Of a stretch of DNA of 64,000 nt, positions 212-35,251 are shown one piece after another. Position numbers and translations under genes: made by a program. Source of the DNA: Escherichia coli (GTDB taxonomy: Bacteria > Pseudomonadota > Gammaproteobacteria > Enterobacterales > Enterobacteriaceae). Within the stretch, counting starts at the first letter, position 1. Each line of letters begins with the position of its first letter. The notes beneath the pieces were generated by a model that was not told the DNA's origin, ran no database searches, and was given only the letters and a program-made list of their open reading frames with translations. The DNA lies in the NCBI RefSeq assembly GCF_003018235.1, contig NZ_CP027437.1. One strand, written 5' to 3'.

Positions 212-1432
212 ATGACACCAGGCGGACAAGCTCAGATAGGTAATGTTGATCTCGTAAAACAGCTTAACAGCGCGGCGGTTTATCGCCTGATTGACCAGTA
301 TGGGCCAATCTCGCGGATTCAGATTGCCGAGCAAAGCCAGCTTGCCCCCGCCAGCGTAACCAAAATTACGCGTCAGCTTATCGAACGCGGGCTGATCAAA
401 GAAGTTGATCAGCAGGCCTCCACCGGGGGCCGCCGCGCTATCTCTATCGTCACCGAAACCCGCAATTTCCACGCAATCGGCGTACGGCTTGGTCGTCACG
501 ACGCCACCATCACTCTGTTTGATCTCAGTAGCAAAGTGCTGGCGGAAGAACATTACCCGCTGCCGGAACGTACCCAGCAGACGCTGGAACATGCCCTGCT
601 GAATGCCATTGCTCAGTTTATTGATAGCTACCAGCGCAAGCTGCGCGAGCTGATCGCCATTTCCGTGATCCTGCCAGGGCTTGTTGACCCGGACAGCGGC
701 AAAATTCATTACATGCCGCATATTCAGGTAGAAAACTGGGGGCTGGTAGAAGCACTGGAAGAACGTTTTAAAGTGACCTGTTTCGTCGGTCACGATATCC
801 GTAGTCTGGCGCTGGCGGAGCACTACTTCGGTGCAAGTCAGGATTGCGAAGACTCCATTCTGGTGCGTGTACATCGCGGAACCGGGGCCGGGATTATCTC
901 TAACGGGCGCATTTTTATTGGCCGCAACGGTAACGTCGGTGAAATTGGCCATATTCAGGTCGAACCGCTGGGTGAACGCTGCCACTGCGGCAACTTTGGC
1001 TGCCTGGAAACTATCGCCGCCAATGCTGCCATTGAACAACGGGTATTGAATCTGTTAAAGCAGGGCTACCAGAGCCGTGTGCCACTGGACGACTGCACCA
1101 TAAAAACTATCTGCAAAGCTGCGAACAAAGGCGATAGCCTGGCGTCGGAAGTGATTGAGTATGTCGGTCGTCATCTGGGCAAAACCATCGCCATTGCCAT
1201 CAACCTGTTTAACCCGCAAAAAATTGTTATTGCCGGAGAAATCACCGAAGCCGATAAAGTGCTGCTCCCTGCTATTGAAAGCTGCATTAATACCCAGGCG
1301 CTGAAGGCGTTTCGCACTAATCTGCCGGTGGTACGTTCTGAGCTGGATCACCGCTCGGCAATCGGCGCTTTTGCGCTGGTAAAACGCGCCATGCTCAACG
1401 GTATTTTGCTCCAGCATTTGCTGGAAAATTAA
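212..1432 (+). CDS. nagC: ROK-family transcriptional repressor of N-acetylglucosamine utilisation
   Basis: 406-aa ORF with N-terminal HTH and ROK sugar-kinase-like fold; position between nagA and nagD. Confidence 0.95.
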   Translation: MTPGGQAQIGNVDLVKQLNSAAVYRLIDQYGPISRIQIAEQSQLAPASVTKITRQLIERGLIKEVDQQASTGGRRAISIVTETRNFHAIGVRLGRHDATITLFDLSSKVLAEEHYPLPERTQQTLEHALLNAIAQFIDSYQRKLRELIAISVILPGLVDPDSGKIHYMPHIQVENWGLVEALEERFKVTCFVGHDIRSLALAEHYFGASQDCEDSILVRVHRGTGAGIISNGRIFIGRNGNVGEIGHIQVEPLGERCHCGNFGCLETIAANAAIEQRVLNLLKQGYQSRVPLDDCTIKTICKAANKGDSLASEVIEYVGRHLGKTIAIAINLFNPQKIVIAGEITEADKVLLPAIESCINTQALKAFRTNLPVVRSELDHRSAIGAFALVKRAMLNGILLQHLLEN

Positions 1433-1479
1433 TGTGCTTTTATAGTGGCGCTTATTGTTGTCAATATTCTGGGTAGTCC

Positions 1480-2232
1480 ATGACCATTAAAAATGTAATT
1501 TGCGATATCGACGGCGTGCTGATGCACGATAACGTCGCCGTACCGGGTGCAGCGGAATTTTTGCACGGGATTATGGATAAAGGCCTGCCGCTGGTGTTGC
1601 TGACCAACTATCCTTCGCAGACCGGGCAAGATCTGGCGAACCGCTTTGCCACTGCGGGTGTCGATGTGCCGGACAGCGTGTTTTATACCTCCGCGATGGC
1701 AACCGCCGATTTCCTGCGTCGCCAGGAAGGCAAGAAAGCATATGTGGTGGGCGAAGGCGCACTGATTCATGAACTGTACAAAGCCGGTTTCACTATTACC
1801 GATGTGAACCCTGATTTTGTGATTGTTGGCGAAACGCGTTCCTACAACTGGGACATGATGCATAAAGCAGCCTATTTCGTCGCTAACGGTGCACGCTTTA
1901 TCGCCACCAACCCGGACACCCATGGGCGCGGTTTTTATCCGGCCTGTGGCGCGCTATGCGCGGGGATCGAAAAAATCTCCGGACGTAAACCGTTCTATGT
2001 TGGTAAGCCGAGTCCGTGGATCATCCGCGCAGCATTAAACAAAATGCAGGCGCATTCGGAAGAAACGGTGATTGTCGGCGATAACCTGCGTACCGATATT
2101 CTGGCGGGCTTCCAGGCCGGTCTGGAGACGATTCTGGTACTCTCCGGTGTTTCGTCGCTCGACGATATCGACAGTATGCCATTCCGCCCCAGCTGGATTT
2201 ACCCATCGGTCGCCGAAATCGACGTTATCTGA
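1480..2232 (+). CDS. nagD: HAD-superfamily ribonucleotide monophosphatase
   Basis: 250-aa ORF beginning MTIKNVICDIDGVL (HAD motif I DxDG). Confidence 0.93.
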   Translation: MTIKNVICDIDGVLMHDNVAVPGAAEFLHGIMDKGLPLVLLTNYPSQTGQDLANRFATAGVDVPDSVFYTSAMATADFLRRQEGKKAYVVGEGALIHELYKAGFTITDVNPDFVIVGETRSYNWDMMHKAAYFVANGARFIATNPDTHGRGFYPACGALCAGIEKISGRKPFYVGKPSPWIIRAALNKMQAHSEETVIVGDNLRTDILAGFQAGLETILVLSGVSSLDDIDSMPFRPSWIYPSVAEIDVI

Positions 2233-2237
2233 ATAGC

Positions 2238-2268
2238 AACCACGCCTCAGGGCGTGGTTTCTTATTTT
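2238..2268 (+). terminator. Intrinsic terminator after nagD
   Basis: Hairpin aaccacgcc-tcag-ggcgtggtt followed by T-rich run. Confidence 0.6.
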
Positions 2269-2488
2269 TACCCATCACTAAAATTCGCCCATTCAATAAA
2301 ACCCGCCAAAAATTATCGATTCATCAATAAATACACCTCTACACCCTACCCTTTTTCATTAATCAGCAATCATCATTACGTTTTTTATTTACCCCCTGCC
2401 AAATCGCTTGCGCACAGTGCTGCTTTGCGGCATTTTTTTAAACAAGCAAACACAACAAGCAACAAATACCAGGTTAACGGAGAAGGTT

Positions 2489-4153
2489 ATGTGTTCAATT
2501 TTTGGCGTATTCGATATCAAAACAGACGCAGTTGAGCTGCGTAAGAAAGCACTCGAGCTGTCACGCCTGATGCGTCATCGTGGCCCGGACTGGTCCGGTA
2601 TTTATGCCAGCGATAACGCCATTCTCGCCCACGAACGTCTGTCCATTGTTGACGTTAACGCGGGGGCGCAACCTCTCTACAACCAACAAAAAACTCATGT
2701 GCTGGCGGTAAACGGTGAAATCTACAACCACCAGGCACTGCGCGCCGAATATGGCGATCGTTATCAGTTCCAGACCGGGTCTGACTGTGAAGTGATCCTC
2801 GCGCTGTATCAGGAAAAAGGGCCGGAATTTCTTGACGACTTGCAGGGCATGTTTGCCTTTGCCCTGTACGACAGCGAAAAAGATGCCTACCTGATTGGTC
2901 GCGACCATCTGGGGATCATCCCACTGTATATGGGCTATGACGAACATGGTCAGCTGTATGTGGCCTCAGAAATGAAAGCCCTGGTGCCGGTATGCCGCAC
3001 GATTAAAGAGTTCCCGGCGGGGAGCTATTTGTGGAGTCAGGACGGCGAAATCCGTTCTTATTATCACCGCAACTGGTTCGACTTTGATGCAGTGAAAGAT
3101 AACGTGACCGACAAAAACGAGCTGCGTCAGGCACTGGAAGATTCCGTTAAAAGCCATCTGATGTCTGATGTGCCTTACGGTGTGCTGCTTTCTGGTGGTC
3201 TGGATTCCTCAATTATTTCCGCGATCACCAAGAAATACGCCGCCCGTCGCGTGGAAGATCAGGAACGTTCTGAAGCCTGGTGGCCGCAGTTACACTCCTT
3301 TGCTGTAGGTCTGCCGGGTTCACCAGATCTGAAAGCAGCCCAGGAAGTGGCAAACCATCTGGGTACGGTGCATCACGAAATTCACTTCACTGTACAGGAA
3401 GGTCTGGACGCCATCCGCGACGTGATTTACCACATCGAAACCTATGATGTGACCACTATTCGCGCTTCAACACCGATGTATTTAATGTCGCGTAAGATCA
3501 AAGCGATGGGCATTAAAATGGTGCTGTCCGGTGAAGGTTCTGATGAAGTGTTTGGCGGTTATCTTTACTTCCACAAAGCACCGAATGCCAAAGAACTGCA
3601 TGAAGAGACGGTGCGTAAACTGCTGGCCCTGCATATGTATGACTGCGCGCGTGCCAACAAAGCGATGTCAGCCTGGGGCGTGGAAGCACGCGTTCCGTTC
3701 CTCGACAAAAAATTCCTTGATGTGGCGATGCGCATTAACCCACAGGATAAAATGTGCGGTAACGGCAAAATGGAAAAACACATCCTGCGTGAATGTTTTG
3801 AAGCATATCTGCCCGCAAGCGTGGCCTGGCGGCAGAAAGAGCAGTTCTCCGATGGCGTCGGTTACAGTTGGATTGACACCCTGAAAGAAGTAGCGGCGCA
3901 GCAGGTTTCTGATCAACAGCTGGAAACTGCCCGCTTCCGCTTCCCGTACAACACGCCGACGTCCAAAGAAGCGTATCTGTACCGGGAGATCTTTGAAGAA
4001 CTGTTCCCGCTTCCGAGCGCCGCTGAGTGCGTGCCGGGCGGCCCTTCCGTCGCGTGTTCTTCCGCTAAAGCGATCGAGTGGGATGAGGCGTTCAAGAAAA
4101 TGGACGATCCGTCTGGTCGTGCGGTTGGTGTTCACCAGTCGGCGTATAAGTAA
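2489..4153 (+). CDS. asnB: Asparagine synthetase B (glutamine-hydrolysing)
   Basis: 554-aa protein starting MCSIFGVFD (N-terminal Cys nucleophile), SGGLDSS PP-loop; the ORF-track start at 2408 is a TTG extension; GGAGAAGG SD precedes ATG 2489. Confidence 0.95.
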   Translation: MCSIFGVFDIKTDAVELRKKALELSRLMRHRGPDWSGIYASDNAILAHERLSIVDVNAGAQPLYNQQKTHVLAVNGEIYNHQALRAEYGDRYQFQTGSDCEVILALYQEKGPEFLDDLQGMFAFALYDSEKDAYLIGRDHLGIIPLYMGYDEHGQLYVASEMKALVPVCRTIKEFPAGSYLWSQDGEIRSYYHRNWFDFDAVKDNVTDKNELRQALEDSVKSHLMSDVPYGVLLSGGLDSSIISAITKKYAARRVEDQERSEAWWPQLHSFAVGLPGSPDLKAAQEVANHLGTVHHEIHFTVQEGLDAIRDVIYHIETYDVTTIRASTPMYLMSRKIKAMGIKMVLSGEGSDEVFGGYLYFHKAPNAKELHEETVRKLLALHMYDCARANKAMSAWGVEARVPFLDKKFLDVAMRINPQDKMCGNGKMEKHILRECFEAYLPASVAWRQKEQFSDGVGYSWIDTLKEVAAQQVSDQQLETARFRFPYNTPTSKEAYLYREIFEELFPLPSAAECVPGGPSVACSSAKAIEWDEAFKKMDDPSGRAVGVHQSAYK

Positions 4154-33288: not shown

Positions 33289-33316
33289 TCCTGTAATAAT
33301 TACTTACATCTGTCTG

Positions 33317-33349
33317 ATAAAAAACCCGCTTTTTGAAGCGGGTTTTTTG
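33317..33349. terminator. Bidirectional intrinsic terminator between convergent lipA and tatE
   Basis: AAAAAACCCGCTTTTTGAAGCGGGTTTTTTG: hairpin flanked by A-run and T-run. Confidence 0.75.
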
Positions 33350-33388
33350 TATCGAACAAGATATTGAGGGAGCGTCCTGCTCGCCACG

Positions 33389-33592
33389 TCACTCTTTATG
33401 AGAGAGCTTTTCAGCCTGAAGATCAACGTCTGCGCCTTTTTTCGCCGCAGCATCGTCATCATTCATCGCCTTCTTGAACCCTTTAATGGCCGCTCCAAGG
33501 TCTCCGCCCAGCGTACGTAACTTCTTAGTCCCAAACAGCAGAACGACCAGCGCCGCAACTACCAGCAGTTTGGTAATACTAATCTCACCCAT
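33389..33592 (-). CDS. tatE: Twin-arginine translocase subunit TatE (TatA paralogue)
   Basis: 67-aa [29 protein letters not shown]... Confidence 0.93.
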
Positions 33593-33720
33593 AGATACCT
33601 TCTTGACATATAACCGGCAACAGAACGCGCCTTAAAAACCAGAGAATATTAACGGTCATTCGACGCGCGCACACAATAGCAATCTGTAACAAGGTGAATC
33701 AAGCGCCGAGTAAAAAAACA

Positions 33721-34515
33721 TCATAATAATTGCGGCGGCGCAAAGCGACGGTTGTTTAAGACGGGCAGTTGCGCGCGCACCTGACGCACACGTTCGGGCG
33801 TCACTTCCGCCATAATGAGTGCAGGCATTTCTGACGCTGCCGCAATGGTGACGCCAAAGGGATCTATAATCCGGCTTTGCCCGATATTTTTGTTCCCGCA
33901 CTCCCCCGCCGCCACCATATAACAGGTGGTATCCAGCGCACGAGCGGCAAGCAACGTTGACCAGTGATGCTCTTTGAGCGGCCCGCGAACCCAGGCGGCA
34001 GGAAGTACCAGGATTTCAGCTCCCTGTAATGCCTGTGCCAGCGCCAGCTCTGGAAAGCGTAAGTCATAACAGGTCATCAGACCGACCTTCATCCCTTCCA
34101 CCTCCAGTAACGGAGCTATTTCATTACCAGCATCAACATGGCGTGATTCCTGAATGGCAAATGCATCATAGAGATGCAGTTTGGCATAACGGGCGACGAT
34201 GTTTCCTGCCTGAAGTGCCACCAGCATATTCCATGCGCGCCCCGGCGTTGAAGGAACATGAATCGTCAGAATTGTCGTCATCATGTTACGTTTACTTTCT
34301 CGCCGTAAACGTCCGAGGAATTCGCCTTCCAGCAGCTGCGCTGATTTAACCGATAGATCTGCATCATGATCATCACGCGCCAACAATGCTTCCGGCAGGA
34401 CAAACAGCGAAACGTCGTTTTCCGCCGCCTGCGCCATCAACGAGGCACAAATCTCAGCGTTCTTTTCCCACACAGATGTAACAGCAAACTGTCCTGCGGC
34501 AACCAGCATTGCCAC
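33721..34515 (-). CDS. ybeM: Nitrilase-superfamily carbon-nitrogen hydrolase, apparently intact
   Basis: 264-aa uninterrupted ORF with C-N hydrolase fold; upstream of tatE on the same strand. Confidence 0.8.
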
Positions 34516-34604
34516 CTCCTCCTGTCAGAGTCGTAAAATTCGCCAACGGCGATTATTCGGCGTTACACTTATCACTCATACAAATCAAATAGCAGGATTT
34601 TGCA

Positions 34605-34988
34605 GTGTTACAACTTCTTTTAGCAGTTTTTATTGGCGGTGGTACGGGAAGCGTGGCGAGATGGCTGTTAAGTATGCGATTTAACCCGCTGCATCAAGCG
34701 ATTCCGTTGGGGACGCTGGCTGCAAACCTGATTGGGGCATTCATCATAGGAATGGGATTCGCCTGGTTTAGCAGGATGACGAACATTGATCCAGTGTGGA
34801 AAGTATTAATCACCACCGGATTTTGTGGCGGTCTAACAACCTTCTCAACATTTTCGGCAGAAGTGGTGTTTTTGTTACAAGAGGGCCGCTTTGGCTGGGC
34901 GTTACTGAACGTTTTCGTCAACCTTTTGGGGTCTTTTGCCATGACCGCACTGGCTTTCTGGCTGTTTTCCGCCTCAACCGCACACTAA
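34605..34988 (+). CDS. crcB: Fluoride channel CrcB/Fluc
   Basis: 127-aa four-TM ORF, GTG start, [12 protein letters not shown] signature. Confidence 0.92.
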
Positions 34989-34993
34989 AGACC

Positions 34994-35026
34994 AAAAAAA
35001 ACCCGCTGATTAAGCGGGTTTTGAAT
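34994..35026. terminator. Bidirectional intrinsic terminator between convergent crcB and cspE
   Basis: AAAAAAAACCCGCTGATTAAGCGGGTTTTG hairpin flanked by A- and T-runs. Confidence 0.75.
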
Positions 35027-35041
35027 TCTTGCTGACGTATC

Positions 35042-35251
35042 TTACAGAGCGATTACGTTTGCAGCAGAAGGGCCTTTGGCACCGTTAGTGATTTCGAACT
35101 CTACGCGCTGACCTTCAGCAAGAGTTTTAAAACCATTAGTCTGGATTGCAGAGAAGTGTACGAACACGTCTTTGCTGCCGTCTTCCGGAGTAATGAAACC
35201 GAATCCTTTGGACTCATTAAACCACTTAACGTTACCTTTAATCTTAGACAT
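35042..35251 (-). CDS. cspE: Cold-shock-domain protein CspE
   Basis: 69-aa protein [20 protein letters not shown] (RNP1 motif); track ORF extends 28 codons upstream. Confidence 0.95.

Follow-up and report, generated by a model that had tools for sequence, protein, structure and literature searches.

The 64,000-nucleotide stretch of DNA that we analysed, hereafter the window, carries ybeM on its minus strand in the gene order crcB < > ybeM > tatE < lipA. The downstream neighbour is tatE (33389..33592, minus strand), which encodes a TatA-type subunit of the Tat translocase of 67 aa, and lipA is located beyond it. A spacer of 128 nt (33593..33720, minus strand) separates ybeM from tatE. The placement of ybeM upstream of tatE in the initial annotation is thus borne out; that annotation had left out the strand of ybeM. 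Upstream of ybeM lies a divergent neighbour, the fluoride channel gene crcB (34605..34988, plus strand). The same arrangement of crcB, ybeM, tatE and lipA is kept in Salmonella, Kosakonia, Leclercia, Enterobacter and Citrobacter. Compared over 24 kb, the window is E. coli chromosome and reaches at most 99.5% identity with any complete genome, strain 042 (99.4%) being one of the nearest.

On the minus strand, a stop-free open reading frame extends from a GTG (34515) as far as position 33721 and could encode 264 aa, according to both the list of open reading frames and the sequence; it closes with a TGA stop at 33721-33723. The in-frame GTG that opens it (34513..34515, minus strand) is probably not the true start. 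It abuts the Shine-Dalgarno run GGAGGAGG (34515..34522, minus strand) with no spacer between them, while an ATG two codons 3’ of it (34507-34509, minus strand) stands 5 nt past GGAGG. This ATG is the start used by RefSeq, and it is where alignments to the Salmonella and Kosakonia orthologues begin. On the grounds of Shine-Dalgarno spacing and orthologue alignment we dropped the GTG start in favour of the ATG. Translation most likely begins with this ATG (34509), and the gene then comprises 262 codons plus the TGA stop (33721..34509, minus strand) rather than 264. The uninterrupted frame reported earlier at 33721-34515 therefore stands together with its coordinates, and only its length of 264 codons is likely to need revision.

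The coding sequence so defined is 100% identical to the ybeM gene of E. coli PCN033 (789 nt, 262 aa, WP_001305561.1), which RefSeq names deaminated glutathione amidase. Its protein matches the family models NF033621 and PF00795. With an identical protein and a shared locus, the open reading frame in the window is the E. coli ybeM gene. It is no chance open reading frame, since the exact protein sequence is recorded on at least 1000 contigs. Compared with other alleles, the protein differs by one amino acid from that of O157:H7, by two from that of ATCC 25922 and by three from a repaired K-12 version. The Shine-Dalgarno run contains one AGG more than its K-12 counterpart (GGAGG), and this longer allele is present in 848 of 5426 complete E. 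coli genomes. The ybeM promoter must lie within the 95-nt spacer between crcB and ybeM (34510-34604). A consensus promoter scan of 33300-34700 returned no site, including none upstream of ybeM, and Rfam searches at permissive thresholds matched nothing in ybeM or in either spacer. Sub-threshold Rfam matches were confined to the 3’ end of tatE and the cspE region.

The initial annotation had described ybeM as a frameshifted pseudogene in K-12, and both the K-12 annotation and a direct alignment agree. In NC_000913.3, ybeM of MG1655 (b4581) is annotated as a pseudogene of 788 nt. Pairwise alignment shows that the K-12 gene lacks one G in the motif GGAC[G]TTTA, at nt 200 of the coding sequence in codon 67; the reading frame would end after 75 aa. 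The missing base is present in the window at 34310..34310 (minus strand), where the frame stays open. Once the deletion is repaired, the K-12 gene differs from that of the window by nine substitutions over 789 nt, three of which change an amino acid. Locus and flanks are the same as in the window, and the spacer to tatE is identical. The K-12 pseudogene serves as a neutral chromosomal insertion site (PMC4788846).

The deletion is not confined to K-12. A 40-nt probe that spans it, and does not seed on intact ybeM sequence, detects the K-12 allele in 860 (16%) of the 5426 complete E. coli genomes, each time at 100% identity. The matching intact probe is found in 3680 of the 5426, and roughly 884 genomes fall outside both counts as a result of substitutions within the probe window. 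Besides K-12 derivatives, carriers of the deletion include isolates from human clinical samples, animals, milk and wastewater with genomes of 4.7-5.2 Mb. Two of them, LC-1302-2020 (rectal swab, Italy) and CFS3292 (bovine, France), combine the K-12 deletion with two substitutions relative to K-12, and RefSeq labels their ybeM ‘frameshifted’. In the O166:H15 strain JNE21-003, ybeM is split by an IS21-family element (ISEc62). Since the frameshift is carried by 16% of the complete genomes, including those of natural isolates, YbeM must be dispensable. This is consistent with the lack of an obvious phenotype reported for loss of Nit1, the enzyme to which we relate YbeM below, in other organisms (PMC7041631).

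The spacer between ybeM and tatE bears on how the two genes are transcribed. Its mean pairwise identity across six genera (82%) equals that of tatE (82%) and exceeds that of the ybeM coding sequence (70%). Within it, alignments delimit a near-invariant block of 57 nt (33648..33704, minus strand), more conserved at the nucleotide level than either flanking coding sequence, that reads as a putative sigma-70 promoter for tatE. The candidate -35 element is TTGATT (33697-33702, minus strand), with a run of seven T about 10 nt upstream; an 18-nt spacer ending in TGC leads to the candidate -10 element TATTGT (33673-33678, minus strand), which a GC-rich stretch follows. This candidate matches the consensus at 8 of 12 positions and was hence not called by the promoter scan, for which the threshold was 9 of 12. 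The 35-nt core of the block recurs in 67 species-representative genomes, which represent at least 14 genera. Wherever flanking sequence is available, it lies about 21 nt past the ybeM stop and about 110 nt ahead of the tatE ATG. Every genome with the block has both ybeM and tatE, so its presence across genomes fits a tatE promoter and a 3’ element of ybeM equally. No Rfam family matches the block.

We found little in the spacer that could end a transcript. The terminator scan returned a single terminator-like feature there, a weak 5-bp hairpin that overlaps the ybeM stop and has its T-run displaced; a second hairpin lies inside tatE. The fold of the spacer is no more stable than that of shuffled sequence (z = +1.0). 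Neither the scan nor the folding supports a terminator between the two genes.

Two accounts of tatE transcription can be weighed against this background. Most likely, to judge from the conserved block, tatE is transcribed from a promoter of its own within the spacer, to which read-through from ybeM may add. Alternatively, ybeM and tatE could form one operon, with tatE expressed mainly from a start upstream of ybeM. The genes share a strand, lie only 128 nt apart without a convincing intrinsic terminator, and are adjacent at a fixed spacing in all 65 species representatives that have both flanks. However, a spacer that outstrips the ybeM coding sequence in conservation and holds a near-invariant TTGATT-TATTGT pair is not what the operon account would lead one to expect. 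Moreover, translation of ybeM stops prematurely at codon 75 in K-12 and 859 other genomes, and in JNE21-003 an IS element separates the ybeM promoter from tatE; both lesions are tolerated. Either would be polar on tatE under a shared promoter. Both fit a tatE promoter of its own but prove nothing, as tatE is dispensable, with TatA covering its function. Jack et al. reportedly described tatE in 2001 as an independent monocistronic unit. In work on Salmonella, tatE is taken to have a promoter region of its own (PMC6361445). On balance we consider the operon account rather unlikely, while granting it real weight, and prefer a separate tatE promoter. SMRT-Cappable-seq supplements contain no occurrence of tatE or ybeM among their transcription start sites or operon calls, and our literature search on the ybeM-tatE pair returned a filamentation screen only.

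At the protein level, YbeM is a carbon-nitrogen hydrolase, as the initial annotation had proposed. PF00795 (CN_hydrolase) matches residues 5-247 of the 264-aa open reading frame with 141.4 bits against a gathering score of 23.2 (E 4.3e-41). The NCBIfam model NF033621 (‘deaminated glutathione amidase’, de_GSH_amidase) matches over profile positions 2-260 of 260 with 451.5 bits against a cut-off of 355; this is an ‘exception’-type model centred on YbeM’s own protein group, and passing it does little more than confirm identity and is not independent evidence on substrate. Other models of the superfamily score far lower. YbeM reaches 82.7 bits with the Yersinia-type dGSH amidase model (cut-off 500) and 63.3 bits with the AguB model (cut-off 410). 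With the archaeal nitrilase model NF040852 (nitrile_Arch) it obtains 61.5 bits (cut-off 500), and true nitrilases (branch 1), which turn nitriles into acid and ammonia, are absent from its top sequence and structure matches. A nitrilase in the strict sense is consequently not supported, and the protein is better called an amidase.

Sequence comparison with solved structures places YbeM among the Nit proteins. The best PDB sequence matches are C. elegans NitFhit (1ems, 1.7e-29) and then S. cerevisiae Nit2 (4h5u, 1.1e-26), with mouse Nit2 (2w1v, 4.4e-22) and yeast Nit3 (1f89, 6.4e-20) ranked lower. A structure of YbeM itself is not among these matches, the best of which has about 30% identity. 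By this ranking of sequence matches YbeM is nearer to the Nit1 type than to the Nit2/omega-amidase type, by a modest margin. Peracchi et al. reportedly identified yeast Nit2 as the Nit1 orthologue in 2017. The Nit domain of NitFhit corresponds to Nit1 (PMC9913352).

The initial annotation had made the Glu-Lys-Cys triad the test of the family assignment, and all three residues align with the motifs of NitFhit and yeast Nit2. Numbered on the 262-aa protein, they are Glu40 in an LPE motif (codon 34390..34392, minus strand), the general base of the triad; Lys110 in a YAKLHLYD motif (34180..34182, minus strand), aligned with the KLH of both proteins; and Cys147 in an MTCYD motif (34069..34071, minus strand), the nucleophile, aligned with their CYD. 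In the column of Cys147, wild-type yeast Nit2 (4h5u) has Cys as well, whereas 4hgd, a mutant whose PDB title gives C169S, has Ser. A further residue, Glu121 in a QES motif (34147..34149, minus strand), aligns with the ES motif of the same two proteins and is, from what is known of the superfamily, a probable second catalytic glutamate. None of these four residues varies among 21 enterobacterial orthologues of 71-84% identity.

Structure prediction points in the same direction. An AlphaFold2 model of YbeM (pLDDT 81.4, pTM 0.84) has low confidence in the loop 113-125 that holds Glu121 (pLDDT <50), at residues 174-178 and in the C-terminal tail. In Foldseek searches with this model, the best matches are K. 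lactis and S. cerevisiae Nit2 (7elf, 4h5u; TM 0.86), and these matches include the C169S structure, which contains an endogenous peptide-like ligand. Mouse Nit2 2w1v (TM 0.86), NitFhit 1ems and yeast Nit3 1f89 (TM 0.81) follow. With TM values of 0.81-0.86, the predicted structure has the alpha-beta-beta-alpha sandwich of the superfamily.

YbeM is thus related to, and distinct from, the eukaryotic Nit1 orthologues (the NitFhit Nit domain 1ems and the S. cerevisiae and K. lactis Nit2 structures 4h5u, 4hgd and 7elf). It shares their fold (TM 0.86), their Glu-Lys-Cys triad and their ES motif, and the reaction assigned to Nit1, the conversion of deaminated glutathione (dGSH) to 2-oxoglutarate and L-cysteinylglycine (PMC10452834), is the one assigned to YbeM. 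However, identity to these proteins is only 28-31%, and YbeM is shorter (262 aa vs about 300), lacking the insertions of the yeast enzymes and the Fhit fusion.

We estimate a probability of about 0.9 that ybeM in the window is an intact, functional allele encoding a Nit1-type amidase that belongs to branch 10 of the nitrilase superfamily, acts in the cytoplasm and has dGSH as its physiological substrate. Because the open reading frame is intact, the triad is present and the K-12 copy is frameshifted, the source strain very probably keeps an active enzyme that has no counterpart in K-12. The substrate had been described as unknown in the initial annotation; that description gives way to the NF033621 match and to the RefSeq name dGSH amidase carried across E. 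coli.

The chemistry would follow that of the family. E. coli makes glutathione, and dGSH, the 2-oxo analogue of glutathione, would arise from transaminase side reactions on it. With Glu40 acting as general base, the thiolate of Cys147 would attack the amide carbonyl that joins the 2-oxoglutaryl moiety to Cys-Gly, and Lys110 and Glu121 would stabilise and position the tetrahedral intermediate. L-cysteinylglycine would then depart, and hydrolysis of the thioester acyl-enzyme would yield 2-oxoglutarate. In this way YbeM may turn a useless by-product of glutathione back into usable metabolites. Nit1 homologues from E. coli and other glutathione-producing bacteria are said to have proved excellent dGSH amidases in the work of Peracchi et al. 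in 2017. Nit1, which acts on dGSH formed by unspecific transamination, is regarded as a metabolite-repair enzyme (PMC10452834). Nit1-type dGSH amidases occur in many bacteria as well (PMC7041631 and PMC10452834, both citing Peracchi et al. 2017), and YbeM has been equated with NIT1/dGSH amidase (PMC8788347). The gene is already known, with a function assigned since 2017 and carried through RefSeq.

A different amide could be the main physiological substrate of an active YbeM, with dGSH a substrate in vitro only. Candidates are 2-oxoglutaramate and 2-oxosuccinamate, as for an omega-amidase of the Nit2 type, or some other N-acyl or peptide-like compound. Proteins of the Nit2/omega-amidase type (2w1v, 1f89 and the YafV type of NF007757) share with YbeM the superfamily branch, the fold and the catalytic residues. 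Fold and triad are in fact common to the whole branch, and specificity lies beyond the reach of sequence or structure comparison; mouse Nit2 and yeast Nit3 are strong matches too (E 4e-22 and 6e-20, TM 0.86 and 0.81). Against an omega-amidase role for YbeM, E. coli has a separate Nit2-like gene, yafV; the YafV-type amidohydrolase model NF007757 matches over residues 90-254 only, with 61.5 bits against a cut-off of 249, and the NitFhit Nit domain and yeast Nit2 outrank mouse Nit2 by sequence, while the curated dGSH amidase model is passed. The substrate of Nit2/omega-amidase is 2-oxoglutaramate, not dGSH (PMC10452834). We therefore regard another main substrate as highly improbable and retain dGSH.

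Conservation of the gene indicates that the enzyme has been maintained. Of 5426 complete E. coli genomes, 5424 contain a ybeM region of 1021 nt, and in essentially all of them the gene bears the name deaminated glutathione amidase. Among intact alleles (window, ATCC 25922, O157:H7 and TW10590) dN/dS ranges from 0 to 0.07; it is 0.03-0.07 in every pair but one, and the exception is without amino-acid change. Pairs that include the repaired K-12 gene give 0.07-0.16, and few changes lie behind these figures. By these ratios ybeM is under strong purifying selection in E. coli. Beyond the species, an intact open reading frame of at least 262 codons occupies the position between crcB and tatE/lipA in 54 of 55 enterobacterial species representatives, the 55 being those with enough flanking sequence. 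The sole exception is the Leclercia adecarboxylata NCTC13032 assembly, which has a frameshift near residue 176 that could be an assembly error. Across the species representatives, nucleotide identity is about 70% and protein identity 72-85%. As judged from these genomes, E. coli and related genera normally have an intact ybeM, which is no peculiarity of the source strain.

Expression data from other strains are also on record. NsrR ChIP peaks lie inside ybeM in both CFT073 and K-12, and the ybeM transcript of the uropathogenic strain CFT073 falls 0.30-fold under NO stress (PMC5320621); since its levels respond to NO, ybeM is transcribed in CFT073. In Salmonella, FliA binds upstream of ybeM, and reporter fusions, a translational fusion among them, were very weak and FliA-independent (bioRxiv 10.1101/2020.09.09.289983). 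FliA-dependent transcription of ybeM can be set aside, as the source paper itself concludes that the gene is probably not transcribed by FliA (bioRxiv 10.1101/2020.09.09.289983).

That an intact ybeM might be effectively silent or decaying, a cryptic gene without current function on its way to the K-12 state, is suggested by the frameshift in 860 of 5426 genomes, the IS-split copy of JNE21-003, the one frameshifted Leclercia assembly, the very weak Salmonella fusion (bioRxiv 10.1101/2020.09.09.289983) and the upstream promoter that the consensus scan did not find, but this is extremely unlikely given dN/dS of 0.03-0.07 among intact alleles of distant E. coli lineages, invariant catalytic residues with 54 of 55 species representatives intact, a strong Shine-Dalgarno sequence and a detectable, regulated transcript in CFT073 (PMC5320621).

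With ybeM read as an intact dGSH amidase gene, K-12 is unrepresentative at this locus. Most E. coli keep a glutathione-repair amidase that K-12 and about 16% of complete genomes are without. Metabolic models and metabolomics based on K-12 miss the dGSH amidase reaction, because ybeM is broken there. Beyond careful annotation, the intact gene matters little, and two points are mildly new: how often the K-12 frameshift allele occurs in the population, and the strongly conserved block ahead of tatE that resembles a promoter, which is a small lead on tatE regulation. One could envision larger consequences, although we regard them as a long shot. The 57-nt block could be more than a plain promoter, in which case a regulated promoter and 5’-leader element, fixed beside ybeM in at least 14 enterobacterial genera, would tie the supply of TatE to some signal. 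The deletion allele, in turn, could be a loss-of-function polymorphism with a measurable metabolic consequence; dGSH would then accumulate or be excreted, and K-12 and its wild relatives would be natural ‘Nit1 knock-outs’. The filamentation screen mentioned above concerned ybeM of UTI89, of which over-expressed out-of-frame fragments cause filamentation while the full open reading frame does not (PMC6206680).

The one-base deletion that makes ybeM a pseudogene in K-12 removes a G at nucleotide 200 of the gene, window position 34310. Of 5426 complete E. coli genomes, 860 carry this deletion, those of the compared loci L002, L003, L005 and L013 among them. The carriers include isolates from human clinical samples, cattle, cats, milk and wastewater, so this allele did not arise as an artefact of laboratory culture but is a polymorphism of natural lineages. 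Two database protein clusters, P0044 (215 residues, 537 members) and P0046 (214 residues, 945 members), contain proteins that are 98–99% identical to YbeM, with coverage restricted to its C-terminal 81%. These clusters probably represent gene-finder calls of the downstream ORF in genomes with the K-12-type frameshift.

Other disruptions of ybeM are found in the genomes compared with the window. In E. coli O166:H15 JNE21-003 (locus L004, positions 781-3698), the IS21-family element ISEc62 (istA/istB) cuts the gene into a 241-residue 5’ part and a 32-residue 3’ remnant, and lies between the ybeM promoter and tatE. The ybeM ORF is intact in all but one of 55 species representatives, the exception being Leclercia adecarboxylata NCTC13032, in which the homologue (positions 2645-3431 of locus L074) changes frame near residue 176. 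The homologue may truly be a pseudogene there, or the frame change may come from an indel introduced during assembly.

The 128-nt spacer between ybeM and tatE (33593-33720) holds a near-invariant 57-nt block, GCTTGATTCACCTTGTTACAGATTGCTATTGTGTGCGCGCGTCGAATGACCGTTAAT, at window 33648-33704 on the minus strand, which is more conserved across genera than the ybeM coding sequence itself. Judged by its motifs, the block reads as a putative sigma-70 promoter, with TTGATT and TATTGT separated by 18 nt ending in TGC. A 35-nt core of the block has matches in 67 species-representative enterobacterial genomes; wherever flanking sequence is available, it lies in the ybeM–tatE interval and keeps a constant distance from both genes.

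Variation is also evident in the Shine-Dalgarno region of ybeM, where the window carries a 3-nt AGG duplication, GGAGGAGG (34515-34522, minus strand), at the site that reads GGAGG in K-12. This duplication allele is found in 848 of the 5426 genomes. The duplication leaves the spacing between the ATG and the proximal GGAGG unchanged, and an effect on ybeM translation is therefore doubtful.

Within ybeM, a 47-codon ORF beginning MFLQRRGAH lies out of frame on the minus strand (window 34116-34259). Its peptide is the same as that reported for a 29-bp ybeM fragment of UTI89, over-expression of which resulted in filamentation (PMC6206680). The filamentation effect is probably an artefact of over-expression. 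NsrR ChIP peaks have been reported within ybeM, approximately 345 bp into the gene, in CFT073 as well as in K-12; under nitric oxide stress the CFT073 ybeM transcript is lowered (0.30-fold) (PMC5320621).

On the crcB side of ybeM, a 5’-truncated match to the Rfam cspA thermoregulator overlies the end of the neighbouring cspE (window 34994-35100, minus strand). With 33.2 bits (E = 2.2e-6), the match stays below the gathering score of 78, and it most likely reflects sequence similarity within the csp family.
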